From the NCBI GenBank assembly GCA_964404005.1, contig CAYOIH010000001.1, positions 226 to 64,225 on the forward strand: a DNA stretch of 64,000 nucleotides, in the 5' to 3' direction. Origin of the DNA: an uncultured Candidatus Saccharibacteria bacterium. Lineage in GTDB: Bacteria > Patescibacteriota > Minisyncoccia > Minisyncoccales > Staskawiczbacteraceae. A program made the position numbers and the translations under genes. The notes under the pieces were generated by a model, which saw only the letters and a list, made by a program, of their open reading frames with translations, did not search any database and had not been told where the DNA came from. This document shows positions 6,100-45,248 of this stretch, piece after piece (positions within the stretch are counted from its first letter, which is position 1; each line of letters begins with the position of its first letter).

Positions 6100-6168
6100 T
6101 AAATAGAAAAAATATCCACGATCAAGGGTGTTTTTTGTTTTATGGCGTAAAGTGGGGCGCATAAATAG

Positions 6169-6177: not shown

Positions 6178-6199
6178 GATTTTATATGTAAAACGGGAT

Positions 6200-6227
6200 T
6201 TGACACGCTTTTTTAATGGAGTAAAAT
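6200..6227 (+). promoter_or_regulatory. sigma70-like promoter upstream of nrdDG
   Basis: TTGACA (6200-6205) - 16 nt - TAAAAT (6222-6227). Confidence 0.45.
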
Positions 6228-6359
6228 GTAGTAATCGACGCTTAAAAATAAAATATTAATTAAGGCATTTTAATAAACTCATTGTTTAGGAATCAGTCCT
6301 AGAATTCTTAAACAATAAGCTTAATTAAAGGCAAATGCCTTTTTTTGTCCCCTAAAACC

Positions 6360-8561: not shown

Positions 8562-8615
8562 AACTAAAAATAAAAACCACTTTATTCAGAAGCGGTTTTT
8601 TGTTAATATAAATTC

Positions 8616-10852: not shown

Positions 10853-10908
10853 GATTATATTATTAGTAGCTCTTTGGGGCTTTAAATATGGCCTATTAAA
10901 ATGTATAA

Positions 10909-26570: not shown

Positions 26571-26990
26571 TTAATCAGCGTTATTTAATGTCTTAATAGT
26601 ATGTATATATCTTTTAATTATTATTTTCTGTGGGCTGAAATTTATTAGAAATCCTAATTGGTATTTTGACCCTTTCAAGTACCCCCAGAATTGCTTTTCA
26701 TCTTCTTTGGTTGTAAATGACTTAGATTTTAATTCTACTATAATTTTGTTTTCCACAATTATATCCGGAATGTATACGCCAATTTTTTCGTTATTATAGT
26801 AGATATCAATTCTTTTTTCTTTTTCTATTGCCAAGTCGGAAGAAGTTAATTCATTGCATAACGCTCGCTGTATAATTTTTTCTTTAATTCCTCCGCCCAG
26901 AGCATTGTAAACTTTAAAACAAGCCCCTCTGATTTTATAGGATTCTTTTTCATATAATAAATTATCTGTATAAATCTGTTTAATCGGCAT
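26571..26990 (-). CDS. GxxExxY-family small protein (PD-(D/E)xK-like fold)
   Basis: SYKIRGACFKVYNALGGGIKEKIIQRAL ... YIPDIIVENKIIVELK pattern; flanked by 13-nt direct repeat c(c/g)gcataaatcag at 26546-26558 and 26985-26997. Confidence 0.45.
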   Translation of the reverse strand: MPIKQIYTDNLLYEKESYKIRGACFKVYNALGGGIKEKIIQRALCNELTSSDLAIEKEKRIDIYYNNEKIGVYIPDIIVENKIIVELKSKSFTTKEDEKQFWGYLKGSKYQLGFLINFSPQKIIIKRYIHTIKTLNNAD

Positions 26991-29307
26991 AAATCAGTGT
27001 AGATAGAAAGCTATCTATCTGGTCTTCCAGCTCAGGATTTGATTTAATAACTTCCGAAGCAATTTGTCTGGCCATGTTATAATTTCCTAATTCTTTGTAA
27101 ATAAGCATTATAGAAGTTTTGTATTGTATTTGTGAGCCGTTTATTACAAATAGTTTTTGATACAGGGGAAGCATTTCTTTATAGTTTTTGGTTTCCAAAT
27201 AAGCAGCCACCAGTTGCCTTAAAGAAATTTCATTTTCAACAGAATATCCGTCTTCTTTTGCTTTTTCTACAAATTCTTTTCCCGTTTTAACATCTCCCAA
27301 ATAAATATTAATTAATCCGGACATCCATAGGCAATCGCGGATTTTTGGGAATGTTTTTAAACAATAAACAGATTTTTCCTTTGCTCCCTTTAAATCTCCA
27401 AAAGAGACGTCAGCCATAAAAAAACTAAAAAGAATTGAGGGGTCTCTGGGGCTTAGTTCCATAGCCCTCTTAAAAGCTTCGTCGGACTTTTTTATAATTT
27501 CCGGGTCTTTGTTTTCTTTTGCGATTGTTGCCAGAGATTCTCCCAAGCGTAACCAATTTCTGTAGTCATATGGTTGTAATATTGTATTCTCTCCGGAAAT
27601 TTCTTTAACTTTTTGTGAAACAGAGCTATTTTCTTCGGGATGCGCAATAATCCTGTCTATTAGCAAATTTAAATAAACAGAATTGGCATAGGGGAGGAAA
27701 AAGGTGTTTATTTTGGACTGTTCATCCATAATTTTTATAGTATCTTTCCAGTTTTTCGATGATTCTGCCCGCGCAATAACAATTTGTTTATTCATTTGTA
27801 GAGGAATAAGATTATATTGCCATAAGAATATTATTAATATCAAAAATAAAATGACTATTATTATTGGTTTCCACCAGGTACTGTTTTTAGGTTCAGCGTT
27901 TTTCAGCGCCGTTATCAGCGTAGCATCAGCATTATTCAATGAAATTAAATGCAGTGAATAAGCAGATAAAAAGAAAAAAATAAGCATAATAGCAGCGCCG
28001 TCAATGGACGCCAAGCCAGCTATAAAAAAAGCTATGAATCCCGCTTGTAGTCCATGGGCAACCGGGTATTTTTTCTTGATTTTTTGGAGGCCCCATAATA
28101 ATGAAAGGAAAAAAACAAGGTAAAAAATTAAAGCAAAAATTCCGGAATCAACCAAAATTTGTATTAAATAATTATGCGCCCTGTCAAAATCTTTTATGTC
28201 TTCCATTGCAGGCAAATTGGGGTCATAGTGTTTGTTGAAAGCAACGTAAAAGTTTTCCGGCCCATATCCAAAATATGGCTTTTCAAAAAAAGCCGATATC
28301 GATATTTTCCAGGCAGATATTCTTGACGGGTCAACTGCAGCGCCTGTTGTCAGCGATGCTGTCCGGCCGACAGTGTCTTTTATTAAGTTGGGCATCCCTG
28401 CATAAATTTGAGGGTTGGCACTTAAAAAGAAAAGAAAAAAAATAAATACCATTGGTAAAACTACGGCACTTATTTTTAACCACTTAAATTTTTTAGGACT
28501 CGCCCCGTTAGAGATTACATTATCTCTAGCGGGGTAAAAAATTAAAAAACAAAAAAGTCCAACCAACATGCCTAAAATAGCAGCTCTTGTTTGGGTTATA
28601 AAAATAATTACAAAAGAATAAAAAATAACAAGGAACAAATAAGAGTATTTTTTTACTTTATTTGCTTCTGATATAAAAAATGATAAAGAAAGAAAAAGAA
28701 GCGGTAAAAGGTAAAGAGCAAGAATTATTGGATTTCCCAATGTTGAGCTTGGCCTGTAAGTTGTTACGGCCAGAAATGATGCAAAAAATCCAAATTGCTG
28801 AAGGACAGCTATTAACCCTACCAAAAATCCGATAATCAATGAAAAATCAAGCAGTTTTTTCCAGCTTGCCTCGCCCGTTGGCGGGTCTTCTTTTTTTATA
28901 ATTGAAAAACAGAAGATGCAGAAAAGGATAAAAAACGAAAAATTAATAAATCCGGCGCCTCTTTCTGGGGTTCCCCATAAACTACGGGAAACATCCAGGG
29001 AAAATAATGTTGAAATAAAAACCGCGAAGAAATATGCCAAAAGCGAAATTAACGGAAGAAAGGTTTTCGTGTGCGGATTAAAAACTTCTTTAAAATTTAC
29101 CTGCCCTGAGCCGTGCCGAAGGGTTTTTTCTTTAACCAAATAAATAAAACCCAAAACCGCCAATAGCGACCTAAAAACAATGGCCTGTGTGTATGCCGAG
29201 GGAGTAAACCATGGCGGAACATTTAAAGCCGGCAAGGCTAATATTATAAAGAACCCAGCTATATATAACCAGTAAAAATTGTTACTTTTTTCGTTGATTT
29301 TAGCCAT
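26980..29307 (-). CDS. Wzy_C/O-antigen-ligase-family membrane protein with C-terminal TPR repeats (possible protein O-oligosaccharyltransferase)
   Basis: ~12 TM helices, ITQTRAAILGMLVGL Wzy_C motif, C-terminal TPR-like helical repeats; contains in-frame family-1 (TLRHGSGQ) and family-2 (PARDNVISNG) repeats. Confidence 0.6.
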   Translation of the reverse strand: MAKINEKSNNFYWLYIAGFFIILALPALNVPPWFTPSAYTQAIVFRSLLAVLGFIYLVKEKTLRHGSGQVNFKEVFNPHTKTFLPLISLLAYFFAVFISTLFSLDVSRSLWGTPERGAGFINFSFFILFCIFCFSIIKKEDPPTGEASWKKLLDFSLIIGFLVGLIAVLQQFGFFASFLAVTTYRPSSTLGNPIILALYLLPLLFLSLSFFISEANKVKKYSYLFLVIFYSFVIIFITQTRAAILGMLVGLFCFLIFYPARDNVISNGASPKKFKWLKISAVVLPMVFIFFLFFLSANPQIYAGMPNLIKDTVGRTASLTTGAAVDPSRISAWKISISAFFEKPYFGYGPENFYVAFNKHYDPNLPAMEDIKDFDRAHNYLIQILVDSGIFALIFYLVFFLSLLWGLQKIKKKYPVAHGLQAGFIAFFIAGLASIDGAAIMLIFFFLSAYSLHLISLNNADATLITALKNAEPKNSTWWKPIIIVILFLILIIFLWQYNLIPLQMNKQIVIARAESSKNWKDTIKIMDEQSKINTFFLPYANSVYLNLLIDRIIAHPEENSSVSQKVKEISGENTILQPYDYRNWLRLGESLATIAKENKDPEIIKKSDEAFKRAMELSPRDPSILFSFFMADVSFGDLKGAKEKSVYCLKTFPKIRDCLWMSGLINIYLGDVKTGKEFVEKAKEDGYSVENEISLRQLVAAYLETKNYKEMLPLYQKLFVINGSQIQYKTSIMLIYKELGNYNMARQIASEVIKSNPELEDQIDSFLSTLIYAD
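28503..28534. repeat. family-2 inverted-repeat element, 6-nt spacer, in-frame inside Wzy_C gene
   Basis: ccccgttagagat tacatt atctctagcgggg (1 mismatch). Confidence 0.55.
29101..29122 (-). repeat. family-1 repeat copy (in Wzy_C gene, sense to that minus-strand gene)
   Basis: revcomp = ccttcggcacggctcagggcag. Confidence 0.8.
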
Positions 29308-29357: not shown

Positions 29358-29804
29358 ATGAAGCAAAAAAGCAACAGAAAAGTTGTAATAACCTCCGGAT
29401 ACTACAACCCCTTACATATTGGTCATGTAAATTTAATTAGAGAAGCTAAAAACTTGGGAGATTTTTTAGTTGTTATAGTAAACAATGATAAGCAGGTGGA
29501 AGCAAAAGGTTCAGTTCCTTTTATGCCGGAAGGAGAGCGGGTAGAGATAATTAAAGCCGTAAAAGATGTAGATGAAGTATTTTTATCTATAGATGAAGAC
29601 AGAACGGTTATTAAAAGTTTGGAGAGGGTTTTTCAAAAACATAAAGGAAAAGAATTATTGTTTGCCAAGGGCGGAGACAGTACGAGTGAAAATGTCCCGG
29701 AAATGGAGGTTTGTGAGAAATTTGGAGCAAAGATTATTTTTGACGTTGGCGGCGGAAAAGTTCAAAGCTCTTCTTGGCTTATAGAAAAATCAATCAAGAG
29801 GTGA
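29358..29804 (+). CDS. cytidylyltransferase-like nucleotidyltransferase (TagD/RfaE-domain-II-like)
   Basis: VVITSGYYNPLHIGHVNLIREAK (HxGH motif), ~148 aa. Confidence 0.55.
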   Translation: MKQKSNRKVVITSGYYNPLHIGHVNLIREAKNLGDFLVVIVNNDKQVEAKGSVPFMPEGERVEIIKAVKDVDEVFLSIDEDRTVIKSLERVFQKHKGKELLFAKGGDSTSENVPEMEVCEKFGAKIIFDVGGGKVQSSSWLIEKSIKR

Positions 29805-31077: not shown

Positions 31078-32223
31078 ATGCCAGGATGGGAATTATTAGG
31101 TAAAGAAGAAAAAGAAGCCGTTGATGAAATATTTGATAAAAGCAACGGCGTTTTATGCCGTTATGGCTTAGACCAACGAAGGAACAATATTTTCAGAGTT
31201 AAAGAATTTGAAAAAACCTTGGCGCAAAAATTAGGCGTCAAACATTGTCTTTTTGTCTGCAATGGCACAGCCGCATTAAAAATCGCGCTTGTTGCTATGG
31301 GGGTTAAGGCGGGAGATGAAGTAATTACCCAAAGTTTTACTTTTGTCGCAACAGCCGAAGTGGTTTTGGAATTGGGGGCAAAACTTGTTATAACCGAAGT
31401 TGACGAATCTTTGAATATGGATCCGCAAGATTTAAAACAAAAAATTACTTACAAAACAAAAGTTATAATCCCGGTCCATATGTCGGGAGTTGCGGCAAAA
31501 ATGGACGAAATATTGGAAATTGCGAAAGAAAAAAATATTCATGTTTTGGAAGACAGTTGCCAGGCACTGGGTGGAAAATATAAAGGGAAATATCTGGGTA
31601 CAATTGGAGATGCCGGCGTTTATAGCTTGGATATTGGAAAAATAATTACAACGGGCGAAGGCGGAGTTCTAGTCACAAACGACGACAGCCTTTATTTACA
31701 AGCAAAAGAATATTCAGATCATGGCCATCAGGACAAGATGGGCGTTCCAAGAGGCGAGGATACTCATTCGAGTTGGGGCTTTAATTACAAAGTTACTGAA
31801 CTCCAGGGGGCAGTAGGTTTGGCTCAGTTAAAAAAGATAGATTATATTTTGCAAGCGCAGAAAAAGAATAAAAAAATTATCAAGGAAGCTTTGCAGAATA
31901 TTAACGGAATAGAATTTCGTCAGCTTCCGGACTCAGAGGGTGATGCCGGGGACACGCTTATATTTTTTGTCGAGAATAAAGAAAAAGCATCAGAATTCGC
32001 TAAAAAATTTAAAGAAAAAGGTTTTGGCACTAAAAATTTACCGGATGCTCTTAATTGGCATTTTGCCGGAGACTGGAGCCATATTTTTCCACGGGTTGAT
32101 ATTTGGCCAAAATCAGAAGAAATTTTGAGGAAAGCTATAGCTATTCCTGTAATGGTTAATATGAATGACGAACAAATAAATAATATTATTAAAGCCATAA
32201 AAGAGGCAGCAGAAAAAATATGA
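31078..32223 (+). CDS. DegT/DnrJ/EryC1/StrS-family PLP-dependent sugar aminotransferase
   Basis: CNGTAALKIAL, active-site Lys region IGKIITTGEGG, ~380 aa. Confidence 0.8.
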   Translation: MPGWELLGKEEKEAVDEIFDKSNGVLCRYGLDQRRNNIFRVKEFEKTLAQKLGVKHCLFVCNGTAALKIALVAMGVKAGDEVITQSFTFVATAEVVLELGAKLVITEVDESLNMDPQDLKQKITYKTKVIIPVHMSGVAAKMDEILEIAKEKNIHVLEDSCQALGGKYKGKYLGTIGDAGVYSLDIGKIITTGEGGVLVTNDDSLYLQAKEYSDHGHQDKMGVPRGEDTHSSWGFNYKVTELQGAVGLAQLKKIDYILQAQKKNKKIIKEALQNINGIEFRQLPDSEGDAGDTLIFFVENKEKASEFAKKFKEKGFGTKNLPDALNWHFAGDWSHIFPRVDIWPKSEEILRKAIAIPVMVNMNDEQINNIIKAIKEAAEKI

Positions 32224-32855
32224 TATTAGGCGTGACTCCAGCAAGAGGGGGAAGCAAAGGCGTTCCCAAAAAAAATATAAAAGATATGTTGGGCAAGCCA
32301 CTTCTTGCTTGGACAATAGAATCAGCAAAGAAATCAAATCTTTTGGACAGATATATTGTCTCGACTGAAAACAGGGAGATAATGGCGGTCGCCAAAAAAT
32401 ACGGCGCAGATTTTTTAATAAGGCCCAAAAATCTTGCGACAGATAGCGCAACAACATTGTCTGTTTTAAAGCATGTTCTCGCGAAGATAGATGCTGACAT
32501 TGTGGTTATTTTGCAATGCACTTCCTCGGTGAGAGATGACGGCTTGATAGACAAATGTATTAAGAATTTTAAAGACAAGAGAGCCGATTCCTTGGCAACA
32601 GGATTTATGTGTAATTTTTTTGAATGGGGCAGTTACGATGGCAGGCGCCAGGACCTGAAAAACTTTTTCCACGACGACGGAAATATATACATCCTAAAGG
32701 CTGATTTAATAAAAAAAGCGAGCCATTTGAAGGACGCCTGGGGTAAAAAGCAGGAAAGAGTTGTCGTCAGTAAGGATCAGAATTTTGAAATAGATGATGA
32801 ATTTGATTTTTGGTTAAACGAACAGATATTATTAAAAAGAAAAAATAAATGCTGA
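32220..32855 (+). CDS. CMP-nonulosonic acid synthetase (acylneuraminate cytidylyltransferase family, NeuA/PseF/LegF-like)
   Basis: ILGVTPARGGSKGVPKKNIKDMLGKPLLAWTI N-terminal motif of the CMP-NeuAc synthetase family. Confidence 0.75.
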   Translation: MILGVTPARGGSKGVPKKNIKDMLGKPLLAWTIESAKKSNLLDRYIVSTENREIMAVAKKYGADFLIRPKNLATDSATTLSVLKHVLAKIDADIVVILQCTSSVRDDGLIDKCIKNFKDKRADSLATGFMCNFFEWGSYDGRRQDLKNFFHDDGNIYILKADLIKKASHLKDAWGKKQERVVVSKDQNFEIDDEFDFWLNEQILLKRKNKC

Positions 32856-32856
32856 T

Positions 32857-35544
32857 ATGAAAGTACTTTTTGTAATGCCTAATAAAGATGTTTTTGGCTA
32901 TAAGCCTATTGCACTAGCCCTTTTGTCGGCACTTTCTAAAAGACTAGGATGGGAAACAAAATTGTTTGATACAACAGGGATTGATTTTGGGTTTTCTGAA
33001 AGCAAAACCCTTTTCCAAGCTGCAAAAATATTCAAGCCCGTGGACTTTACGAAATACGACATGGCTAAGAAGAAAGTTGATTTAAAGGAAGAGTTCACAA
33101 ATGTATTTAAGGATTATAATCCTGATATTCTAGCTTTTTCTGTTTTAAGCGATCAGTTTATAATATCAAAGGAAATTTCGGAAACAGCAAAAAGGCTCAA
33201 TCCTAATATCGTAGTTATTTGGGGCGGAGCCCATGCAACATTGGACCCGGAGAATGTCCTGAAAAATTATGGGGCGGATTTCGTTTGTTTGGGGGAGGGG
33301 CTTGAAGCATTCCCTGAATTTTTGAGCGCATTTAAGGACGGGAAAGATCTATATAATATTAAAAATATTTGGGGTATTAGAAACGGGGAGATTATAAAAA
33401 ACGACTTAAGGCCGCTAAAACAGAACTTAGACGATTTGCCCTATCTTGATTGGGATATCTTTGATAAAAGGCATTTCTATAAACCATTTTCCGGAAAAGT
33501 ATATATAGGAGGAGACCATATGCTTAACTGGGGATGCGTAAATAATTGCACATATTGCATTAATAATTTTTATCACAATCTTTACGCAGGCAAAAAATGT
33601 GCTTTTCTTAGGCGTTATTCGCCCAAAAGAATCGTTGAAGAATTGAAATATTTGGAAGAAAAGTATGGAATAGAGTTTTTTAAATTTTTTGATGAAGATT
33701 TTCTGCTAAGACCATTGGACTCGCTTAAAGAATTAAGTGAGTTGTATAAAAAAGAGGTTAATGTCCCTTTTTCAATCGAAACTAATCCAAAATTTGTTGA
33801 CCGTGAGCGAGTAGCACTTTTAAAAAATATGAATTGCGTCAATGCTTCGCTAGGGGTTGAAACAGGCGACCTTAAGGCCCGAAAAGAAATATTGGGCAGA
33901 ATAGATTCCGAAGAAGATATTGTAAGGGCCTTTACTTTGTTGAGAGAGGCCGGGATAAAAACATCTTCTTTTAATATGCTCGGGCTGCCTTTTGAATCTA
34001 GGGAAGCTTATAAAAAAACAATCGAAATAAACAGGAAGGCGAATCCTCAATACCCGCAGTGCGGTTTTTTCTATCCTTTTAAAGGAACAAAACTTAGGGA
34101 TATTTCAATTAGTCTTGGTTTGTTTGACGATAAAAATAAGGATACGGCGATATGGCTATATGACAAGCCAGCTCTTCATTTTAAACACTTGACGGAGGAT
34201 GAGCTAGTGGAGATGAGAAATGTTTTTGTCTTTTACATAAAGCTACCCAGAGAATATGAGCCGTTCATAAGAAGGTCGGAAAAAAGAGATGAAATAGGCA
34301 CGAAACTGAGAAATAAAATTTCTGAAATATATGATAAAACTGTGTGGGCGAATGACGGCTGGTATGCAGACGATGGCTTTAAGGAAAATTATTTGGCGGA
34401 GTTAAAACAGATAACGGACAATATAGGCAGTATTGATTTTAGTGGCTTTTCGGGGTCGGCGAAAAAAAATGAAAATGGTTTTAAAAACTATAAAAATGTT
34501 CCTTATTATTTTTTTGGTAAAGGATCTGTCTCTGAGCTGAAAAATGTATTGTCGAGAAAAAGAGTACAAGGGCTTCCGACAGTTTTTTTAGTTGATGAAT
34601 TTTTTACCGATAAAAATGTGCAGAATATCCTGTCGCTGGAGCCGGCAGACATTTTGATTTTTGTTTCTACAAAACAAGAACCCAAAGCAGAGTATATTGA
34701 TGAAATAACTGATGGGATAAAATCAAAATTTCAAAAAGGCCTACCTTCGGCAATAATAGGAATGGGCGGAGGAACGGTAATGGATATTTCAAAATGTGTT
34801 TCTATTTTATTGACAAATCCAGGCAAAGCAGAAGATTACCAGGGCTGGAATTTAGTTAAAAATCCGGGTGTTTATAAAATTGGCATACCGACAATTTCAG
34901 GCACGGGAGCAGAAACGTCAAGAACAGGCGTGTTTACAAGCAAAAAAGTAAAATTGGGTATGAATAGCGAATATTCCATGTTTGACCAAATTATTTTAGA
35001 TCCAGAATTTTTAAAAACAGTGCCGAAAGAGAAATTCATTTATACCGCAATGGATTGTTACGCTCATGATGTTGAATTATTGAAAGGCAACGACAGCCAA
35101 CTGACTAAAGTTTTTGCCGCTAGTTCGTTAAATCTATTGCGAGGGGCGCTAAAAAATCCCCAGAAAATTGATTATGAAAAGTTGATGCTTTCTTCTTATC
35201 TTGGCGGAATCGCAATGGGAACGGCTTCGGGTGGGCACGTATGCCATCCGACCTCTTACGGCCTTAGTTTTGTTTTAGGATTAAGACACGGGATATCGGT
35301 GTGCATGGCATTTAATGCTTTGGAAGAATATTATGGAGATTTTTTGCCTGAGTTCAGGGATATTTTCTTCAGATTCAACGTGAATTTGCCCAAAGGTGTT
35401 ACAAAAGACGCCACAGAGCAGCAGATAGAAGAAATGGCGCAAGCAACGCTTAAAAATGAAAAACCGCTGGAGAGCGCTTTCGGAAAAAATTGGAGAGAGG
35501 TATTTACAAAAGAAAAAGTAAAAGAGATTTTAAGAAGAATATAA
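32857..35544 (+). CDS. fusion protein: B12-binding radical-SAM domain (N-terminal) + iron-containing alcohol dehydrogenase/DHQS-like domain (C-terminal)
   Basis: N-terminal B12-binding-like Rossmann domain, CVNNCTYC radical-SAM cluster; C-terminal GMGGGTVMD (GGGS motif) and His-rich metal site HVCHPTSYGL of the Fe-ADH/DHQS superfamily. Confidence 0.6.
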   Translation: MKVLFVMPNKDVFGYKPIALALLSALSKRLGWETKLFDTTGIDFGFSESKTLFQAAKIFKPVDFTKYDMAKKKVDLKEEFTNVFKDYNPDILAFSVLSDQFIISKEISETAKRLNPNIVVIWGGAHATLDPENVLKNYGADFVCLGEGLEAFPEFLSAFKDGKDLYNIKNIWGIRNGEIIKNDLRPLKQNLDDLPYLDWDIFDKRHFYKPFSGKVYIGGDHMLNWGCVNNCTYCINNFYHNLYAGKKCAFLRRYSPKRIVEELKYLEEKYGIEFFKFFDEDFLLRPLDSLKELSELYKKEVNVPFSIETNPKFVDRERVALLKNMNCVNASLGVETGDLKARKEILGRIDSEEDIVRAFTLLREAGIKTSSFNMLGLPFESREAYKKTIEINRKANPQYPQCGFFYPFKGTKLRDISISLGLFDDKNKDTAIWLYDKPALHFKHLTEDELVEMRNVFVFYIKLPREYEPFIRRSEKRDEIGTKLRNKISEIYDKTVWANDGWYADDGFKENYLAELKQITDNIGSIDFSGFSGSAKKNENGFKNYKNVPYYFFGKGSVSELKNVLSRKRVQGLPTVFLVDEFFTDKNVQNILSLEPADILIFVSTKQEPKAEYIDEITDGIKSKFQKGLPSAIIGMGGGTVMDISKCVSILLTNPGKAEDYQGWNLVKNPGVYKIGIPTISGTGAETSRTGVFTSKKVKLGMNSEYSMFDQIILDPEFLKTVPKEKFIYTAMDCYAHDVELLKGNDSQLTKVFAASSLNLLRGALKNPQKIDYEKLMLSSYLGGIAMGTASGGHVCHPTSYGLSFVLGLRHGISVCMAFNALEEYYGDFLPEFRDIFFRFNVNLPKGVTKDATEQQIEEMAQATLKNEKPLESAFGKNWREVFTKEKVKEILRRI

Positions 35545-35547
35545 AAA

Positions 35548-36603
35548 ATGGCAGCAGATAAAAATAATAAGAAAAATTCCATCAGTATCCATGGAAGAAA
35601 AATAGGTGAAGAATACGAACCTTTTATTATAGCTGAAATCGGCATAAACCACGAAGGAAGTTTAAAAAAAGCGAAGAAAATGGTAGATGATGCCCAAAAA
35701 TGCGGGGCAGAGTGCGTAAAATTTCAATCGCACGTAATTGAAGACGAAATGATAGAAAATAATGTTATCCCCGGAAACGCCAAAGAATCAATCTGGGATA
35801 TAATGAAACGTTGCGCCCTTACAGAAAAAGAGGAAAAAGAACTTAAAAAATATGTTGAAGACGCGGGCATGGTTTATTTATGCACGCCATTTTCTCGCGC
35901 CGCCGCAGACAGGTTGCAGAAAATGGGAGTGGTCGCTTTTAAAATAGGCTCAGGAGAGTGCAATAATTATCCTTTAATAGAACACATCGCTTCATTTGGA
36001 AAACCAACTATTTTGAGCACAGGCATGAATGACATAAAAAGTATCAGAAAAAGCGTTAATATTTTAGAAAAGGCAAAAGTGAATTATGCTTTGTTACATT
36101 GTACCTCTATGTATCCAACGCCGTACGATAAAGTAAGATTAAATGCCATAGCTGAACTTAGGAGAGAATTTAAAAATGCAGTCATAGGTCTAAGTGACCA
36201 TTCAATCGGCAATTATACATCTTTTGCGTCGATTCCCCTCGGCGCCTGTATAATAGAAAAACATTTTACTTCTGACAGAACTTGGCCGGGTCCCGACGTT
36301 CCTATTTCGATAATCCCATCAGAATTGGAAGATTTAATCAAGGGGACTAAAGCCATACACCAAGCCCTTGGCGGCAAAAAAAATATATTAAAAGAAGAAG
36401 CGCCGACCATAAAATTTGCTTATGCTTCGGTGGTCACAATAAATGATATAAAGAAAGGAGAAATTTTTACAAAAGAAAACCTGTGGGTTAAAAGGCCGGG
36501 AACAGGGGAAATAAAAACGGAACATTATTCAGAAATATTGGGAAAAAAATCGAAAAAAGATATTAAAAAAAATTCGCAATTAAAATGGGGCATGGTCGGC
36601 TAA
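35548..36603 (+). CDS. neuB: N-acylneuraminate-9-phosphate/nonulosonic acid synthase (NeuB/PseI/LegI family)
   Basis: IAEIGINHEGSLKKAKKMVDDAQKCGAECVKFQSH; C-terminal SAF/antifreeze-like domain. Confidence 0.85.
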   Translation: MAADKNNKKNSISIHGRKIGEEYEPFIIAEIGINHEGSLKKAKKMVDDAQKCGAECVKFQSHVIEDEMIENNVIPGNAKESIWDIMKRCALTEKEEKELKKYVEDAGMVYLCTPFSRAAADRLQKMGVVAFKIGSGECNNYPLIEHIASFGKPTILSTGMNDIKSIRKSVNILEKAKVNYALLHCTSMYPTPYDKVRLNAIAELRREFKNAVIGLSDHSIGNYTSFASIPLGACIIEKHFTSDRTWPGPDVPISIIPSELEDLIKGTKAIHQALGGKKNILKEEAPTIKFAYASVVTINDIKKGEIFTKENLWVKRPGTGEIKTEHYSEILGKKSKKDIKKNSQLKWGMVG

Positions 36604-36613
36604 ATTTTTTAAC

Positions 36614-37759
36614 ATGAAGGGAAAGAACAAAAAAAATAAAAAAATGGTTTTTTTAACTGCGACAAGGGCCGATTTTGGGAAGTTAAAACCATTAATAAAT
36701 ATGGTTGAAAAATCCGATTTTTTTGAATGTTTTGTTTTTGTGACGGGCATGCACACATTGCCAAAATACGGCTTAACTCTTAGAGAAGTTGAAAAGCAGG
36801 GCTACAAAAACATTTTCACCTATAAAAATCAGAAAGACGCCACCAACATGGATATTATTTTAGCCAACACGATAAAAGGATTCAGCTCTTTTGTAAAAAA
36901 AATAAGACCGGACATAATTGTGCTACATGGAGACAGGGTTGAGCCATTGGCTGGGGCGATTACCGGTTCTTTGAATAATATTTTGGTTGCCCATGTAGAG
37001 GGCGGGGAGATTTCTGGCACTGTTGACGAATTGATACGCCACGCAATTTCCAAGCTTTCTCATCTGCATTTTGTTGCCAATAAAGAGGCCAAAACAAGAT
37101 TGATACAAATGGGAGAATCAAGCGGCAATATTTTTACCATAGGTTCTCCGGACATTGATATTATGAAGTCGGATAATTTACCGAAAATTGAAGGAGCCAG
37201 GAAAAGATATAATATCCCCTTCAAAAAATATTCAATTTTTATTTATCATCCGGTTGTAGGAGAAATTAGATCGCTCAAAAAAGACATAAAAAAAATTGTT
37301 GAAGTGGCTATAGAATCTAAGAAAAATTACGTTGTAATATATCCCAACAACGATATGGGCGCAGATATTATCTTGAATGAATACAAAAAATTCCGGGGTA
37401 AAAAAGAATTTAAAATTTTTCCGTCGCTGCGGTTCGAATATTTTTTAACACTGATGAAAAATGCAGAATTTATAATGGGAAATTCAAGCAGCGGGATCAG
37501 GGAGGCCGAGGTGTATGGCATTCCTTCAATAAACATCGGGACAAGACAAAAAAACAGGACGAGGAACAAAGACATTATAAACGTCCTCGTCGATAAAAAG
37601 GAAATACTTAAGGCAATTGATATGGCGGGTAAAAAGAAATTGCAAGCGATTAATAATTTTGGCAGTGGCAATAGCGCCGAAAAATTTTACAAAATTATTT
37701 TGGACAAAGGTTTTTGGAATACAGATATCCAGAAACAGTTTTTGGATTTTAAAAAGTAA
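36614..37759 (+). CDS. neuC: UDP-N-acetylglucosamine 2-epimerase (hydrolysing), NeuC/LegG-like
   Basis: FLTATRADFGKLKPL...VTGMHT...HVEGGE motifs of hydrolysing 2-epimerase family. Confidence 0.8.
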   Translation: MKGKNKKNKKMVFLTATRADFGKLKPLINMVEKSDFFECFVFVTGMHTLPKYGLTLREVEKQGYKNIFTYKNQKDATNMDIILANTIKGFSSFVKKIRPDIIVLHGDRVEPLAGAITGSLNNILVAHVEGGEISGTVDELIRHAISKLSHLHFVANKEAKTRLIQMGESSGNIFTIGSPDIDIMKSDNLPKIEGARKRYNIPFKKYSIFIYHPVVGEIRSLKKDIKKIVEVAIESKKNYVVIYPNNDMGADIILNEYKKFRGKKEFKIFPSLRFEYFLTLMKNAEFIMGNSSSGIREAEVYGIPSINIGTRQKNRTRNKDIINVLVDKKEILKAIDMAGKKKLQAINNFGSGNSAEKFYKIILDKGFWNTDIQKQFLDFKK

Positions 37760-37773: not shown

Positions 37774-39213
37774 TTGGAAAAAAGTCTTATAAAAAATACC
37801 GGAATTTACTTTATAGTTAATTTGCTTTCGCAATTTGCTGTTTTTGTTTTGTGGATCATTATAGCAGGGGTGCTTTCTCCTTTGGAGGTTGGCGTATACG
37901 CTCTGGCTATTTTCATAGTTGATTTCTTTGGGGCATTCGCTATTTTTGGGTTGAACTCCGCTATCACCAGATTTTATTATTCTGAAGAGTCGGTTCAGGA
38001 GGTGTTTTTCAATTCACTGATAATTCTTATTGCTTCTATTATTATATCTGTAGCCGCGCTGTTTCTATCTGCGGGTTTTATCTCTTGGTTTATCCCAGGT
38101 ATTTCTGGTATTCTCAACGGCAATATTTTTTTATTTAACTCGCTGATTTTAACCTCTTCCATTTATAATTTTGCGCTCTCTCACTACTCCGCCTTAAAAA
38201 GGACCCTTCTGTATGCTAAAGTTAGTTTATCGCAAACAATTTTATTTTTTCTTTTTGCTTTACTGTTCTTATATATTAAACTCGGAATTTTGGGAATTTT
38301 TTATGCGTTGTTTATTTCCTACTCAATTCCGGCATTGTTGTTTATTTTTCAGGAAATAAAATCCCTCTCCTTCCGATTTTTTTCCATAAAAATTATAAAA
38401 TCACTACTACATTATAGCATCCCTATGATGCTATATTCAATATTGGGGACTATTGTGATGTATGCCGGAAGAATTTTTCTAGACAAATACGCAAGCATTT
38501 CAACTTTGGGAGTTTACGGATTTTTTTTGATAGTGATGTTGCAGATCAATGCCATTTGGTCAACTTTCAACAAGGCGTGGACTCCGGAAATATTCTCTCA
38601 ACTAAAAGAAAATAAAAAAAGGGCGCTGGAAAACGTAAAAAGCATGGCATTCATTTCCAGCTTTGTTTATTCGATATTTTTTATTATGCTTATAATTTTT
38701 AAACAGGTCGGACTTTTAGGATTATTTATAAAACCCATATACCTGTCAAATATTTATATTCTGTACATCCTTTTGTTGGCGCCCTTGTTTACCGGCATTT
38801 ACACATCAGCATATCCTCTTTTTTATTATAAAAAAAAGACAGGAATGATTTTAATGATATCCATTGCTCTTAATTTTTTGTCTATAGCATTAACATTTTT
38901 TATGGTAAAATCATTCAGTCAGATGGGTGCCGCATTAAGCTATTTTATTTCATCCGCCCTGTCTGTATTCGTTTTTTTGTTCGCCTTCAAAAAAGATATG
39001 GGTATTTCCTCAAGCATTATAAAATGGGCTTTATTTGTGTTTTCCGCGGCCGTCCTAGGAATTTACATCTTCCTGGAAACATCGTCAAGTATACTGCTCC
39101 TCTTTATTTTCGTTGCAATCGCGCTTCTGGCTTATAAGTTTGGGTCGTTATCCAAAAAACAATATTTATTAGTATCTCTTTGGAAGGATATTGGGTTTAA
39201 ATTTAAGGTTTAA
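37774..39213 (+). CDS. wzx: oligosaccharide flippase (Wzx/MOP superfamily)
   Basis: ~14 predicted TM helices, 479 aa, polysaccharide-biosynthesis-protein-like profile. Confidence 0.6.
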   Translation: MEKSLIKNTGIYFIVNLLSQFAVFVLWIIIAGVLSPLEVGVYALAIFIVDFFGAFAIFGLNSAITRFYYSEESVQEVFFNSLIILIASIIISVAALFLSAGFISWFIPGISGILNGNIFLFNSLILTSSIYNFALSHYSALKRTLLYAKVSLSQTILFFLFALLFLYIKLGILGIFYALFISYSIPALLFIFQEIKSLSFRFFSIKIIKSLLHYSIPMMLYSILGTIVMYAGRIFLDKYASISTLGVYGFFLIVMLQINAIWSTFNKAWTPEIFSQLKENKKRALENVKSMAFISSFVYSIFFIMLIIFKQVGLLGLFIKPIYLSNIYILYILLLAPLFTGIYTSAYPLFYYKKKTGMILMISIALNFLSIALTFFMVKSFSQMGAALSYFISSALSVFVFLFAFKKDMGISSSIIKWALFVFSAAVLGIYIFLETSSSILLLFIFVAIALLAYKFGSLSKKQYLLVSLWKDIGFKFKV

Positions 39214-39301: not shown

Positions 39302-40654
39302 ATGAATAATAAAAATTCAAACATCAAAGTTCTTTTTTATACCTTTACCGCAAGGGCTTTTAGGACAACCTTGGTCGGTCATTTGTATGAAATATGCCGG
39401 GCTTGGCCTACGGTTTTAATTTCTGAGAAATTGGATCAAGATTCAGAGGATGCTTTGAAAAATAAAGATTTTCCCCACAAATTAGGAAAAATAATACAGA
39501 TTCGTCAGTTCAGCGGGGTAGAAAAAAATAACATATTTGCTCAAAATAAGTATCTTTATAGCTTAGCGAAAAAATTTATTGAAGAAGAAAAGCCCGATAT
39601 AGTTGTTACTGCCAGCGACATGCATTCGTTGTTTGAGATGTATCTGTTGAGGTTGGCAAAAAAGAATAATTCATTGAATTTGTGTTTGCAACCCTCAAAT
39701 ACAGGTGGCATTAAAGTCGTTGAAAAGTGGGTTGATCATATTAACGCTTATTTAAGGTTCCCTATATTTTTACCTTTGTGGTTGAGGATTTTTTTAGTAA
39801 AATGCAGAAAATATTCTGGCCACCTTTTTTATTATTGGATTTTACCGGTAACAGCGGGCCAGATGCCATTTTTTGGGAAATCAAGCCATATACTGGTAAG
39901 AGGCAATTCGGGGATGAGAGATTCGGACTATCAAATAGTTTTTTCTCATAGAGATTACAATTTTTTTATTAAAGATGGAGTGCCAGCTGAAAAATTAAGA
40001 ATTTTGTCACATCCTTTAGCTAGAAAAAAGACAAGGGAATTTTTTGAAAAAATATATTTTAAGAATTATAAGAAAAACAAGGGCAAAAAAACTGTTGTAT
40101 TAATGATTCCTACGGGAATAGAAATCGGATTTTTTAAAAAAGATTTTTCCTTGATTCCTCAAAAAGGAAGGGAGGAGAAATGGGTTGAAACGATAAGATT
40201 AATCAGCAGGATCCTTCCAGGCTGGGACATATTCATAAAACCGCATCCCGATACTAATACTAAAAACTTTGATGATATAAAAAACATGATAGAATCAATT
40301 TCGGAAAATATAAAAATCGCCGACCCCGGAGAGCCAGCGGACAAATATATTGAATTGGCTGATATTATTATAGGTTTGCCACCGTCAACAAGCACGACAA
40401 TTTTCACGGCTTCATTGCAGTGTCCGGAAAAACCGATAATCTCTCTGGATTTTTATCAGGAGGTTTTGGGAGATTTTTACAAGGAATTCGAGGGTATTGA
40501 ATATATCGACAACGAAAAAAGATTTATTGAGATATTGAAAGATATTCGGGATAAAAAATATCAAAAGAAACAAAGATTAAAAAAAGAAGAATTTTCAAAC
40601 ATAGTCGAATTAATAAATAATTTAATCAGCGCAAAAAATGAAAAAAGAAATTAA
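39302..40654 (+). CDS. putative TagF/KpsC-like transferase (candidate nonulosonic-acid or glycerophosphate transferase)
   Basis: IKPHPDTN motif resembling the KxHP motif of CDP-glycerol glycerophosphotransferase / capsule-synthesis families; otherwise no strong match. Confidence 0.3.
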   Translation: MNNKNSNIKVLFYTFTARAFRTTLVGHLYEICRAWPTVLISEKLDQDSEDALKNKDFPHKLGKIIQIRQFSGVEKNNIFAQNKYLYSLAKKFIEEEKPDIVVTASDMHSLFEMYLLRLAKKNNSLNLCLQPSNTGGIKVVEKWVDHINAYLRFPIFLPLWLRIFLVKCRKYSGHLFYYWILPVTAGQMPFFGKSSHILVRGNSGMRDSDYQIVFSHRDYNFFIKDGVPAEKLRILSHPLARKKTREFFEKIYFKNYKKNKGKKTVVLMIPTGIEIGFFKKDFSLIPQKGREEKWVETIRLISRILPGWDIFIKPHPDTNTKNFDDIKNMIESISENIKIADPGEPADKYIELADIIIGLPPSTSTTIFTASLQCPEKPIISLDFYQEVLGDFYKEFEGIEYIDNEKRFIEILKDIRDKKYQKKQRLKKEEFSNIVELINNLISAKNEKRN

Positions 40655-41177
40655 AATTTTTTTAAATCTGTTAATTTATATTTTTGTTGGATTGTTTGAC
40701 TTAATTATTCGCCCTTTCAAAAGATATGTATTTTTTGTGATTCAAAGTGTAAGAATGGCAAAGTGGAAAACAAAATTAGGTAGTTTAGGGGATAATGTAG
40801 AAATATATCCCGATGTAATAATGCATTTTTCCAAGAACATAAAAATTGGAAATAACGTATCAATAACTGAGTTTGTTCATATGTGGGGCGCCGGCGGGAT
40901 AGAGATTGGCGATGACACCGTTATCGCCGCGCACTCAATTATTACTTCACAAACGCATGATGCCAACGCCGATTCTTACAGGTCGACGCAAGTTTTTAAA
41001 CCCGTGAAAATCGGCAAAAATGTTTGGATTGGTTCGGGAGCGATAATACTGCCAGGTATAACGGTGGGAGATAATGCTATCGTAGGTGCAGGTAGTGTAG
41101 TTACACATGATGTTGAGCCGAATATAACGGTTGTGGGGATTCCCGCAAGAATACTGCAACGTATAGAAAGAAAATAA
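40638..41177 (+). CDS. hexapeptide-repeat (LbH) acetyltransferase
   Basis: IGNNVSITEFVHMWGAGGIEIGDDTVIAAHSII... hexapeptide repeats, WbbJ/NeuD-like. Confidence 0.7.
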   Translation: MKKEIKIFLNLLIYIFVGLFDLIIRPFKRYVFFVIQSVRMAKWKTKLGSLGDNVEIYPDVIMHFSKNIKIGNNVSITEFVHMWGAGGIEIGDDTVIAAHSIITSQTHDANADSYRSTQVFKPVKIGKNVWIGSGAIILPGITVGDNAIVGAGSVVTHDVEPNITVVGIPARILQRIERK

Positions 41178-41264: not shown

Positions 41265-42008
41265 ATGCAAGCCAGATTAAGATTTAAAATGAAAATAATA
41301 AAAAATATAGTAGTTAATTTAATCCATTGGTCGGGGTACGACATTTATAAGATACCTAAAACAGATTTTTCTGGTTTGGATAAATTAAACATTAAAACTA
41401 TTATAGACATAGGCGCTAATCGTGGACAGTTTGCCAGGAGGGTTTTTTTAATCTTTCCAGAAGCAAAAATTTTCTGTTTTGAGCCGGTCGAAGAAGCCTT
41501 TGACGGTTTAAAAAAATGGGCAGAATCTTCAGGTCAGGGAAGGGTTTTCGTTTTTAATGTGGCACTTGGAGATAAGGAGGAAGAAAAAGAAATGTTTTTA
41601 CATTTAAATCACACCGATTCATCCTCAATGCTCCAAACAACCAAAAGCTTCGAAAATGATTTTCATTTAGCCCAGAATCAGAAAAAAATAAAAGTGAATC
41701 AATATACTTTGGATACGGCCTTGGAAAAATTGGTAAAGAAAGAATTAGAAAAAGAAGTATTGGTAAAAATGGATGTTCAGGGATATGAAGGTTTGGTTAT
41801 TAGTGGCGCAAAAAAAATATTGCTAAAATCTAAAGCCTGTATTATTGAAATCGTTAACGATGAATTTTACAAAGGCCAGCCGGATTTCAAGAAAATATTT
41901 TTTTTGATGGACAATTTTGGATTTAAGTATTATGGAAACTTAGAACAAGTTATAGACCATAGAGATGGGCATATTACTTATTACGATGCGATTTTTATAA
42001 AAAAATAA
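41265..42008 (+). CDS. FkbM-family SAM-dependent methyltransferase
   Basis: IIDIGANRGQFA...FCFEPVEEAF motif typical of FkbM family. Confidence 0.7.
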   Translation: MQARLRFKMKIIKNIVVNLIHWSGYDIYKIPKTDFSGLDKLNIKTIIDIGANRGQFARRVFLIFPEAKIFCFEPVEEAFDGLKKWAESSGQGRVFVFNVALGDKEEEKEMFLHLNHTDSSSMLQTTKSFENDFHLAQNQKKIKVNQYTLDTALEKLVKKELEKEVLVKMDVQGYEGLVISGAKKILLKSKACIIEIVNDEFYKGQPDFKKIFFLMDNFGFKYYGNLEQVIDHRDGHITYYDAIFIKK

Positions 42009-42009
42009 C

Positions 42010-42939
42010 ATGAAAAGAGAATACAAAAAAATATTAGTTGCCGGCGGGAGCGGATTTTTGGGAAAGAGCGTGATTCAAAAACTAAAAGAGAGGAATCTCA
42101 ATTTCGTTTCTTTAGATTTAGCAACCGGCCACGATTTCCGTGACTTCGAAAAAAATAAAAAAGTTTTTGATGAAGAAAAATTTGATGCCGTAATACATTG
42201 CGCTGCTTTTGTTGGAGGAATTCAATTTGGATATGAGCATCCTGCCGAACTATTTTACAACAATATTTTAATGACTACCTACCTTATGGAGACCGCCAGA
42301 TTGGCCGGAGTCAAAAGATTTATTAATCCAATCTCAAACTGTGTTTACCCTGGGTCCGCATCCCTTTTTAAAGAAGAAGAATTATGGGACGGACCTATGC
42401 ACGAATCTGTTGCGAGCTATGGACTTACTAAAAAGGCGGGCTTGGTCCAAGGACAGAGTTATTATAAACAATATGGCTTTGACTCAGTTCATTTAATTTT
42501 GCCGAACATGTATGGCCCCGGAGACCATTTTGAAGAAGTAAAGTCGCACGCGTTGGGGGCCCTGATAATGAAATTTGAGGAAGCTAGGAGGAAAAATATT
42601 TCAGAGGTTGCCGTATGGGGAAGCGGAAAACCAATTAGAGAGTGGCTTTATGTCGAGGACGGAGCAGAAGCTTTGGTGAGAGCTTTGTTTATTGATTCAT
42701 ATAACGAACCCGTAAATATAGGAATTGGCAAAGGGATTTCAATTGCAGAATTGGCAATCTTAATAAGGGGGGCAGTTGGGTATAATGGCAAAATAGTTTT
42801 TGATCCATCTAAGCCCGATGGAGCCCCGACAAAAACAATGGAAGTAAGCAAAATGAGAAAAATATTTGACTGGGAACCCAAAATCCAGCTTGAAGATGGA
42901 ATTAGAAAAACAGTAGAATATTATAAAAATAATTTTTAA
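42010..42939 (+). CDS. fcl: GDP-L-fucose synthase (GDP-4-keto-6-deoxymannose 3,5-epimerase/4-reductase)
   Basis: KKILVAGGSGFLG, YNNILMTTYLMETA, catalytic YxxxK (YGLTK) region; 309 aa. Confidence 0.75.
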   Translation: MKREYKKILVAGGSGFLGKSVIQKLKERNLNFVSLDLATGHDFRDFEKNKKVFDEEKFDAVIHCAAFVGGIQFGYEHPAELFYNNILMTTYLMETARLAGVKRFINPISNCVYPGSASLFKEEELWDGPMHESVASYGLTKKAGLVQGQSYYKQYGFDSVHLILPNMYGPGDHFEEVKSHALGALIMKFEEARRKNISEVAVWGSGKPIREWLYVEDGAEALVRALFIDSYNEPVNIGIGKGISIAELAILIRGAVGYNGKIVFDPSKPDGAPTKTMEVSKMRKIFDWEPKIQLEDGIRKTVEYYKNNF

Positions 42940-42950
42940 AACCGCATATT

Positions 42951-44168
42951 ATGTTCAGAAAACTATGCTTAGCATGTAGCTCACAGAATCTTACAAAAAT
43001 TATTGATTTGGGAATGCATCCATTTGCTGACACCTTTATTCCTGAATCGCGACTCAGTGAATCTGAGCCGGTTTATCCGTTGTCGTGTGATTTGTGCAAA
43101 GACTGTGGTCACATCCAGACTTCATGTATAACTAATCCGATGGACCGCTATGCTTCCTATGATTATTCGTATACTTCGGCAAATTCCACATTTTCAAAAA
43201 ACCACTGGCAGAATTATGCAGTGGAAGTTCCTACAAGAATAAATTTAGAAAAAGGAGCCAGTATTATTGATGTTGGTTCAAACGACGGCTTTTTGCCGGA
43301 ACATTTTCAGAAGAACGGATATAGGGTTTTAGGGGTGGACCCATCTCAGTTTATGGTAGATCTGGCAAAAAAAAACAATGTAGAAACCTTCATTGGACTT
43401 TTTAATTTAGAAACCGCAGCAAAAATTTTAGAAGATTTTGGAAAGGTAAATCTAATCACTGCAAATAACGTTTTTAACCATTCAGACGCGCCACAAGATT
43501 TTGTAAAAGCAGTTGAGTTGATTTTGGCTAAAGATGGTGTGTTTGTTTTTGAATCGCCTTATTGGATGTCCACCTTCAAAACAAAAAAATTTGATCAAAT
43601 TTATCACGAGCATGTAAGTTATTTTACGGTTAAGTCCGCTAGAAAAGTTTTGGAAGCGGCGGATTTAGTGATCACAGACGTACAAATGGTAAATTATCAC
43701 GGTGGATCTCTCCGCGTATTTTCAAAAAGAAAAAATGATGCTAAAAATGAAGCCTCAATAGTAAAAGAATTAATTGAAAAAGAAGAAGCGTTAGAACTTT
43801 TTAATCAGGAAAGTTATGTAAAGTTTATGCAAAATATCTTAGACCAGCGCAATGTATTTCTTAAAAAAGTTTATGAAATAAAATCCAACGGTGAACCAAT
43901 TATTGCAGTTGGAGCTGCGGCTAAAGGGAACACCTTTCTTAATTTTTATAATTTAAATCATACTGTAATTGATTATGTGACAGATTCGTCTCCTTATAAA
44001 TGCGGGAAGCACACTCCTTTATCAAGAATTCCAATTAAAAATGATGATATTTTTTCTCAATACAAAGACGTTTATGCTTTGATTCTTTCCTGGAATATTG
44101 CAGACCAGCTTAAAGATAATTTAGGTAAAATAAATAAAAAAATAAAATTTATTTCTCCGGAAAAATAA
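42951..44168 (+). CDS. NDP-sugar C-methyltransferase (TylC3-like; N-terminal Zn-ribbon + class I SAM MTase)
   Basis: CLACSSQN...[11 protein letters not shown] zinc-binding N-domain, [15 protein letters not shown] motif, C-terminal C-methyltransferase-like domain. Confidence 0.6.
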
Positions 44169-44169
44169 T

Positions 44170-45225: not shown

Positions 45226-45248
45226 ATAAACAAAATAATTTTTTAAAG

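Follow-up and report, generated by a model that had tools for sequence, protein, structure and literature searches.

A radical-SAM enzyme fused to a KdnB-type alcohol oxidase domain in a sialic-acid-type operon of an uncultured bacterium: a probable tailoring enzyme of nonulosonic acids

Sialic acids, like their relatives in bacteria, influence recognition by the immune system, the adsorption of phages and the charge of the surface, and to our knowledge their known biosynthesis involves no radical chemistry. In Shewanella oneidensis, KdnB and KdnA convert the terminal CH2OH of Kdo (3-deoxy-D-manno-octulosonate) into CH2NH2 (PMC5125639). In gentamicin biosynthesis, the cobalamin radical S-adenosylmethionine (rSAM) enzyme GenK optionally methylates C-6′, GenQ oxidizes both the primary alcohol and the methylated secondary alcohol, and GenB1 transaminates both products (PMC4039129). 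Here we analyzed a stretch of 64,000 nucleotides from an uncultured Candidatus Saccharibacteria bacterium (contig CAYOIH010000001.1, positions 226 to 64,225; the whole stretch is called the window below), in which one open reading frame (ORF; 32857..35544, forward strand) encodes an 895-residue fusion of a class-B rSAM enzyme, a linker of ~15 residues and an iron-containing alcohol dehydrogenase (Fe-ADH) of the KdnB type. We propose that this protein is probably bifunctional, acting as a tailoring enzyme in a pathway to a sialic-acid-type nonulosonic acid (NulO). That both halves belong to such a pathway is held with high confidence.

The fusion is a genuine single polypeptide and not an assembly artefact. 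The ORF has an ATG start and zero internal stops over its 895 codons, and the exact same protein was read on at least 24 contigs, with 31 blocks listed from JGI, ENA and Logan assemblies; this recurrence excludes a sequencing or assembly frameshift. At the three displayed loci of the identical protein, the translation equals the query. Pfam supports both superfamily assignments, with B12-binding at residues 73-155 (E 1.1e-16), Radical_SAM at 226-390 (E 8.5e-25), Fe-ADH at 551-716 (E 1.5e-23) and ADH_Fe_C at 728-860. In nucleotide positions, the protein comprises a cobalamin-binding Rossmann domain (~residues 1-165; 32857..33351) supported by PF02310, its motif and the modelled fold; an rSAM core with the C227-x3-C231-x2-C234 cluster motif (33514..34056; PF04055); a family-specific C-terminal helical region of the rSAM half, recognized by conservation and model confidence (to ~residue 525; 34057..34431); the linker, the DNIGSIDFSGFSGSAKKNENG region (residues 526-540; 34432..34476); and a KdnB-type metal/NAD alcohol oxidase domain (residues 541-895; 34477..35541). 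The linker begins where the rSAM family alignment ends and stops short of the first residue that aligns to KdnB, namely to its residue 5. The junction is clean, with a full-length rSAM enzyme before it and a full-length KdnB after it, and stops occur in both other reading frames.

The preliminary description of this stretch, made from the letters alone, had seen one intact polypeptide that carries a cobalamin-binding-like domain and a CVNNCTYC rSAM cluster (residues 227-234) and lies between neuA and neuB inside a nonulosonic-acid operon. All of this stood, and neither a frameshift nor a stop was seen. The search for the same fusion elsewhere showed it to be rare: in a word-indexed search of 5.8 billion proteins, rSAM and Fe-ADH occurred together only in the identical protein among the best 120 matches, and in a full HMMER scan of 1.84 billion representatives no match among the best 150 covered both halves. 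The fusion thus appears unique to the window's lineage and is, in itself, a lineage-specific curiosity.

The N-terminal half (residues 1-525) is, as judged from its sequence and its model, a class-B (B12-binding) rSAM enzyme without a characterized close relative. Mean column identity is 65% over 27 sequences that are 51-78% identical to the query, and conservation runs to ~residue 521 in every homolog. The three cysteines C227, C231 and C234 are invariant in the 27 homologs (alignment A1), and S95-x-L97 and G123-G124, 26 residues apart, are invariant or nearly so; SxL...GG at this spacing is a cobalamin-binding signature. The PF02310 match reaches 61 bits against a cut-off of 32. No NCBIfam equivalog came near its cut-off, the best being HpnJ (102 bits) and BchE (98 bits) against cut-offs above 480. 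The AlphaFold model of this half has a predicted local distance difference test score (pLDDT) of 92.8, high in the C-terminal helical region as well, and its best structural matches in the PDB are TsrM, CysS, MgmA/QCMT, TokK, OxsB and AprD4 (TM-score 0.57-0.66, identity 13-18%, Foldseek E 4e-22 to 1e-17). As in these enzymes, an N-terminal Rossmann (cobalamin) domain is followed by a partial TIM-barrel rSAM core, and the modelled B12 domain superposes on those of cobalamin-bound TsrM, TokK and CysS. Unlike them, this family has its own C-terminal helical region and a NulO-cluster context.

The C-terminal half (355 residues, 541-895) aligns from one end to the other with KdnB of Shewanella (PDB 5k8c; E 1e-86, 42% identity) and with PDB 3rf7, a structural-genomics homolog of KdnB (E 1e-91), whereas the next-best solved Fe-ADH reaches only E 7e-24. 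This half keeps the glycine-rich motif GMGGGTVMD (residues 635-643) as well as D733, H737, H797 and H811 as metal ligands, all with identical counterparts at the aligned positions of 5k8c. The earlier assignment of this half to the Fe-ADH superfamily was therefore right, and its likening to dehydroquinate synthase (DHQS) and 2-deoxy-scyllo-inosose synthase (DOIS) has to be given up: no DHQ-synthase Pfam model matched the fusion protein at E <= 0.1, and the 42 PDB matches of the protein include no DHQS or DOIS chain. The DegT-family gene two genes upstream (31078..32223, forward strand; Pfam DegT E 1.5e-86) encodes a pyridoxal-phosphate aminotransferase that matches KdnA, the 8-amino-3,8-dideoxy-octulosonate transaminase (PDB 5k8b), at E 1.5e-92, whereas the next chain reaches 1.7e-49 and 2-deoxy-scyllo-inosose aminotransferases 6e-46. 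Since the C-terminal half is of the KdnB type and the DegT protein of the KdnA type, the echo of aminocyclitol chemistry that had been heard in the trio of rSAM, DHQS-like and DegT proteins is lost; these matches make the triad reminiscent of the biosynthesis of 8-amino-Kdo (Kdo8N) and not of carbocycle formation.

Like its Shewanella counterpart, the KdnB-type domain is matched over its full length, keeps the Asp/His/His/His metal site and has KdnA in its operon, and the pair would likewise act on a 3-deoxy-2-ulosonic acid at its terminal carbon, by oxidation followed by amination. It differs in being fused to an rSAM enzyme and in serving an operon whose sugar is of the nine-carbon NeuB/NeuC type, not Kdo. 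No KdsA and no WaaA/Kdo transferase was found among the window ORFs scanned. Given the NeuC/NeuB/NeuA context, we call the domain KdnB-like and avoid the name Kdo 8-oxidase.

The genes from 31078 to 37759, all on the forward strand, overlap or are separated by 1-10 nt and hence form one operon of ~6.7 kb. After the KdnA-type gene comes a NeuA-like CMP-sugar synthetase of 211 residues with a divergent CTP_transf_3 domain (32220..32855; E 1.8e-27), then the fusion, then NeuB, an N-acetylneuraminate-type synthase with a SAF domain (35548..36603; PF03102 E 2.2e-75), and NeuC, a hydrolysing UDP-N-acetylglucosamine 2-epimerase that scores above its equivalog cut-off (36614..37759; TIGR03568 413.8 bits, cut-off 235.9). 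NeuB scores 381.6 bits with TIGR03569 (cut-off 399.65) against 263 bits with PseI. The NeuA-like protein reaches 97 bits with CTP_transf_3, with only profile positions 4-126 of 217 aligned, and 123 bits with the NCBIfam PseF model, whose cut-off is 205.7; its orthologs, at 58-68% identity, adjoin rSAM and/or KdnA/KdnB genes in many loci. A Wzx-type flippase (37774..39213; Polysacc_synt E 2e-12) and a possible sialyltransferase (39302..40654) follow on the same strand, the latter with a weak polysialyltransferase-like match to PF07388 (E 3.6e-4, below threshold) and none in NCBIfam. The set of NeuC, NeuB-SAF, CMP-transferase, flippase and possible sialyltransferase is that of canonical NeuC/NeuB/NeuA clusters; the locus departs from these by three extra tailoring activities (rSAM, KdnB-type oxidase and KdnA-type transaminase) and by its divergent cytidylyltransferase.

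Outside the window, the rSAM family comprises ~260-340 protein clusters that pass the search thresholds. The best 120 homologs of each search, at 51% identity or more, are all metagenomic or from metagenome-assembled genomes (MAGs), under the names Omnitrophota, Chloroflexota, Deltaproteobacteria, Desulfobacula, Nitrospirae and Pseudomonadota. A second search seeded with a Pseudomonadota member returned only metagenomic and MAG proteins among the homologs listed, and cluster look-ups gave Scalinduaceae and Nitrospinaceae MAG names and no cultured organism. We examined 64 metagenomic and 4 genomic loci; a genome-collection scan with a single-sequence query found four loci. As single-linkage clustering merged rSAM, NeuB, NeuA, NeuC and KdnB through fusions, neighbours were counted by domain over 27 non-redundant ortholog loci with flanks of at least 6 kb. 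NeuB and CTP_transf_3 were each present in 20 of the 27 loci, DegT in 16, Fe-ADH in 10 and NeuC in 6, and Fe-ADH never occurred without DegT (10/10). All ten rSAM-associated NeuB proteins that were scored ranked higher as Neu/Leg-type than as Pse-type. The relatives are also fused to enzymes of the pathway, always with the rSAM domain N-terminal: to NeuB-SAF in P0002 (876 residues) and P0003 (875 residues), to a divergent NeuB plus a cytidylyltransferase in P0009 (1097 residues), to a NeuC-like epimerase in P0113 (919 residues) and, in P0069, to a SAM methyltransferase. A 4.45-Mb genome carries a minimal rSAM-NeuB-NeuC-CBS-NeuA arrangement with no KdnA or KdnB.

KdnA orthologs (54-73% identity) accompany the rSAM gene in loci L008, L009, L012, L013, L047 and L051, and within the window's subclade (at least 66% identity) every informative locus holds both a KdnA ortholog (65-73%) and an Fe-ADH. 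The latter is a KdnB ortholog in L009 and a non-KdnB, methanol/propanediol-dehydrogenase-like protein in L008, L012 and L013, the loci of the closest rSAM relatives, which carry LegB/PseC-like precursor genes and not NeuC.

Some further observations were made around the rSAM family. In the closest relatives of the window's cluster, a gene for a transcobalamin-like DUF4430 protein and/or one for a DUF6580 membrane protein stands beside the rSAM operon, namely in L008 (3987-4997), L012 (4896-5911) and L014 (3-410), in the last of which the DUF6580 gene is directly upstream of rSAM; no such genes are present in the window. Transcobalamin-type B12 binders have DUF4430 as their C-terminal domain (PMC4350170), and these genes may serve a dedicated B12 capture. 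Across 50 locus groups, three other families recur next to the rSAM gene: a SPASM-domain radical-SAM protein of ~336 residues (12 groups; e.g., L031 8460-9467), a Methyltransf_23 methyltransferase with a Cys-rich N-terminal segment (9 groups; e.g., L022 1808-2761) and a 583-residue protein without a Pfam match (8 groups; e.g., L005 15278-17026). Loci L011 and L017 are byte-identical over 21,566 bases of contig JGI1356J14229_10000004 (621 kb; 210830-232395 and 416560-438125), which points to an exact large duplication or else to an artefact of indexing, and they were counted once.

The KdnB family is larger, with 3022 proteins at E <= 1e-30. The best 120 of these are all standalone proteins of ~250-470 residues, most of ~350, and JGI automatic annotation labels many family members 'Kdo 8-oxidase'. 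KdnB/KdnA pairs adjoin NeuB in all such loci sampled but one. Two loci, L076 (on a 3.86-Mb contig; 7001-12086) and L079 (6001-11098), have the order KdnB-KdnA-NeuA-NeuB-NeuC, L081 (2995-8312) has NanE-NeuB-KdnB-DegT, and L077 has KdnA-NeuA-KdnB, in each case without an rSAM gene; the modules of L076, L079 and L081 lie in capsule or exopolysaccharide loci. L080 is the sole sampled KdnB with a Kdo-type context, its neighbours being a KdsB-like gene and one for a WaaA-like transferase (Glycos_transf_N). A small tree built by neighbour joining, which carries no support values, places KdnB of Shewanella with the L080 protein, apart from the NeuB-context proteins, which include the window domain. 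A KdnB/KdnA module serving NeuB-type sugars thus appears to occur independently of any radical-SAM enzyme. By analogy with Kdo8N, KdnB and KdnA beside NeuA, NeuB and NeuC in genomes without rSAM would predict natural 9-amino sialic acids, as yet undescribed; a literature search found no paper on a KdnB/KdnA module in NeuB-type operons.

The comparison also suggests how the fusion arose. The KdnA-NeuA-KdnB order of L077 corresponds to KdnA-NeuA-[rSAM-KdnB] in the window, and the standalone KdnBs of L077 and L075 are 70-79% identical to the window domain. L075 is orthologous to the window cluster (KdnB 79%, NeuB 81% and NeuC 83% identity), and it carries, upstream of its standalone KdnB, a different B12-rSAM paralog (33% identity) and a NeuB′-NeuA′ fusion (4781-7982). 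From these arrangements, rSAM and KdnB/KdnA look like two mobile modules for tailoring in NulO operons, which the window's lineage would have welded together. The NeuB′-NeuA′ pair of L075 is also fused to rSAM in P0009 (locus L009); its NeuB′ domain is 23-26% identical to canonical NeuB and has no SAF domain, and its cytidylyltransferase partner is divergent.

Taken with the operon and the family context, these homologies indicate that the fusion very probably tailors a NulO sugar. NeuC, NeuB and the NeuA-like enzyme would, by homology, make and CMP-activate a sugar like N-acetylneuraminic acid (Neu5Ac). The KdnB-type domain would then oxidize the terminal hydroxymethyl carbon, C9 and the counterpart of C8 in Kdo, to a carbonyl, and the KdnA-type transaminase would convert this carbonyl into an amine, giving a 9-amino-9-deoxy sialic acid; close homology and the recurrent context of both enzymes argue for these steps. 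Such terminal oxidation and amination, proposed by analogy, is in our view the probable course. A hexapeptide acetyltransferase encoded downstream (40638..41177, forward strand; Hexapep E 8.8e-17, with a weak NeuD/PglB/VioB match of 64.5 bits) is a candidate O- or N-acetylase of the modified sugar and could then acylate it. From its enzyme class, the rSAM half is expected to generate a 5′-deoxyadenosyl radical at its [4Fe-4S] cluster, to take a hydrogen from the sugar or from one of its precursors and, most likely, to transfer a methyl group from methylcobalamin. C-methylation by this half, which had been raised in the preliminary description, is plausible, and we rate the odds that it is a C-methyltransferase as a little short of even.

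The site of such a methylation is a further matter. The fusion to a domain acting at C9 and the GenK/GenQ/GenB1 precedent make the side chain an attractive site, and methylation at C9 itself nevertheless seems doubtful to us. In both systems a cobalamin rSAM C-methylase, a dehydrogenase and a transaminase dependent on pyridoxal phosphate would act on the terminal carbon of an amino sugar, and the gentamicin pattern would explain why KdnB/KdnA occur with or without rSAM, though it does not prove that rSAM acts at C9. The parallel is one of mechanism only: the two sets of enzymes are not orthologous, GenQ is a flavoprotein and not an Fe-ADH, the gentamicin enzymes are separate polypeptides, and their substrate is a pseudotrisaccharide antibiotic and not a CMP-activatable sialic acid.

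Several observations weigh against parts of this proposal. Because rSAM is found without KdnA/KdnB and KdnA/KdnB without rSAM, the fusion is no proof that both halves act at one carbon or that their steps follow directly on each other. The differences in Fe-ADH and in precursor genes at L008, L012 and L013 mean that the trio of rSAM, KdnA and NeuA is not tied to Neu5Ac specifically, and in the window both NeuB and the NeuA-like protein fall under their NCBIfam equivalog cut-offs. HpnJ and BchE, the best NCBIfam matches of the rSAM half, are not described as methyltransferases, and AprD4, a diol dehydratase, is among its top structural matches; methylation is thus no more than what enzymes of this class most often do. 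The rSAM homologs listed include none with a known product and none from a cultured organism. Finally, the window encodes an anaerobic ribonucleotide reductase, NrdD, with its activase (6345-9344), from which the host would be an uncultured, probably anaerobic bacterium, whereas the characterized Shewanella KdnB is an O2-dependent oxidase (EC 1.1.3.48). The use of O2 sits badly with an apparent anaerobe and with a presumably O2-labile rSAM cluster on the same polypeptide.

A first alternative is that the rSAM half is not a methyltransferase but works on the glycerol side chain as a radical dehydratase, as an epimerase or as an enzyme of rearrangement, with the fused Fe-ADH processing the carbonyl, for example in a net deoxygenation as by AprD4/AprD3; KdnA could then aminate the keto intermediate. 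We consider this unlikely, although AprD4, a radical-SAM 1,2-diol dehydratase of an amino sugar (PDB 6fd2), matches by sequence at E 3e-12 and in Foldseek at E 4.5e-20 with a TM-score of 0.62. HpnJ and BchE are compatible with it, a redox domain would be the natural fusion partner of a keto-forming radical step, and no O2 would be needed in an anaerobe. It has to contend with the strong B12-binding match and the conserved SxL...GG, as AprD4 works without cobalamin, and with the KdnB/KdnA modules that accompany NeuABC in rSAM-free genomes, which imply that the KdnB domain has an alcohol substrate of its own and needs no product of an rSAM enzyme; the high identity of the window domain to the standalone KdnBs of L077 and L075 points the same way.

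Other readings would change the sugar or the chemistry altogether. It is very improbable that KdnA and the KdnB domain produce Kdo8N for a glycolipid resembling lipopolysaccharide and share no more than a location with the sialic-acid genes. The only characterized members of both families do act on Kdo (5k8c and 5k8b), and L080 adjoins genes of the Kdo type, but the window ORFs scanned encode neither KdsA nor a Kdo transferase, the order KdnB-KdnA-NeuA-NeuB-NeuC recurs in unrelated genomes, the window domain sits with the NeuB-context homologs in the small tree, away from Shewanella and L080, and the family of the rSAM partner is itself fused to NeuB, NeuC and NeuA. Even less credit is due to carbocycle formation, in which a DHQS/DOIS-like domain, the rSAM enzyme and DegT would carry out an aminocyclitol-like chemistry. 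HpnJ, one of the two best NCBIfam matches of the rSAM half, is associated with the conversion of a glucosamine ring into a cyclitol in hopanoids, and DHQS and Fe-ADH share a distant superfamily fold; set against this are the lack of any DHQ_synthase match at E <= 0.1, a KdnB match more than 60 orders of magnitude better than that of any other solved Fe-ADH, and a DegT neighbour that fits KdnA far better than the 2-deoxy-scyllo-inosose aminotransferases. An artefact that joins two ordinary genes has only the absence of the fusion from other lineages in its favour and, with the identical product in independent JGI, ENA and Logan assemblies and two full-length halves around a clean linker, its probability is negligible. 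A tailoring enzyme of a NulO pathway, with a KdnB-type and an rSAM activity, is the reading we retain.

The operon lies in a surface-glycan cluster of ~30 kb that reaches ~58.6 kb of the window. Downstream of the acetyltransferase gene, an FkbM-type methyltransferase is encoded (41265..42008, forward strand; PF05050 E 2.5e-16), and FkbM genes adjoin rSAM in L007 and L075 too. Beyond it lie a second deoxysugar pathway, glycosyltransferases, a Wzy-like protein, a priming transferase and PglF/PglE-like genes. The second sugar pathway (42010-46349) comprises an epimerase, a TylC3-type sugar C-methyltransferase (Methyltransf_13/23/14; 42951-44168), a 4,6-dehydratase and a DegT protein, which suggests a branched-chain amino-deoxysugar; in L077, a single protein of 1116 residues (2879-6229) combines the activities of DegT, C-methyltransferase and epimerase. 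The cluster also holds a split transketolase-like pair, consisting of an N-terminal thiamine-pyrophosphate domain and a pyrimidine-binding domain (53336-54133 and 54137-54643), which may add a two-carbon unit to a sugar; a similar pair lies a few genes from KdnB/DegT/NeuB in L081 (10458-12289).

At the other end, a small cytidylyltransferase-like gene (29358-29804) is the first of the cluster, and a 775-residue Wzy_C/O-antigen-ligase protein with tetratricopeptide repeats and a PD-(D/E)XK protein are encoded divergently from it (26571-29307, reverse strand). The Wzy_C protein and the small cytidylyltransferase-like gene are syntenic in L008 and L012 (63% and ~34% identity). A standalone radical-SAM protein of 354 residues (20590-21654) is encoded upstream of the cluster, after a ComEA-like surface protein. 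The remainder of the window is ordinary chromosome, with HisRS, FtsA, FtsZ, ComEC, HtrA, ClpB and MurB, and an Rfam scan of the window found no RNA genes.

In the literature, we found no paper linking radical SAM to nonulosonic acids, and searches on sialic acid/cobalamin/NeuB, on legionaminic/pseudaminic acid and on iron-containing alcohol dehydrogenase/NeuB returned nothing relevant. Ulosonic acids with a C10 backbone have been detected by mass spectrometry in Magnetospirillum gryphiswaldense and, in lesser amounts, in Methanococcus, with no genes assigned (PMC8157484), and the same group now reports C10 ulosonic acids that are also CMP-activated (bioRxiv 10.64898/2026.04.20.719630). The supplements of the SugarBase preprint contain no mention of radical SAM. 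A cobalamin rSAM C-methylase of a NulO operon is a gene candidate for such a C10 chain extension, which we offer as a lead and not as a finding. In its full form, the idea would be that the rSAM clade of NulO clusters adds one carbon to the skeleton of the sialic acid, at C9 for instance, giving a ten-carbon or branched ulosonic acid that, in the window's lineage, KdnB and KdnA then convert to an amino sugar; we regard this as unlikely.

Taken together, the locus suggests that this bacterium makes an undescribed sialic acid, probably aminated and possibly C-methylated. The family-level result outweighs the fusion itself: an uncharacterized class-B rSAM clade is linked by its fusions with the biosynthesis of sialic acids, and NeuB operons repeatedly contain KdnB/KdnA modules. 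The ties of the rSAM family to NeuB, NeuC and NeuA, by gene order and by four fusions, imply an undescribed C-H functionalization of sialic acid. If the idea of an added carbon is true, it would be the first radical-SAM step known in sialic-acid biosynthesis and would supply the missing genetic basis for the C10 CMP-ulosonic acids of M. gryphiswaldense and Methanococcus. The enzymes could open access to modified sialic acids that are hard to synthesize.

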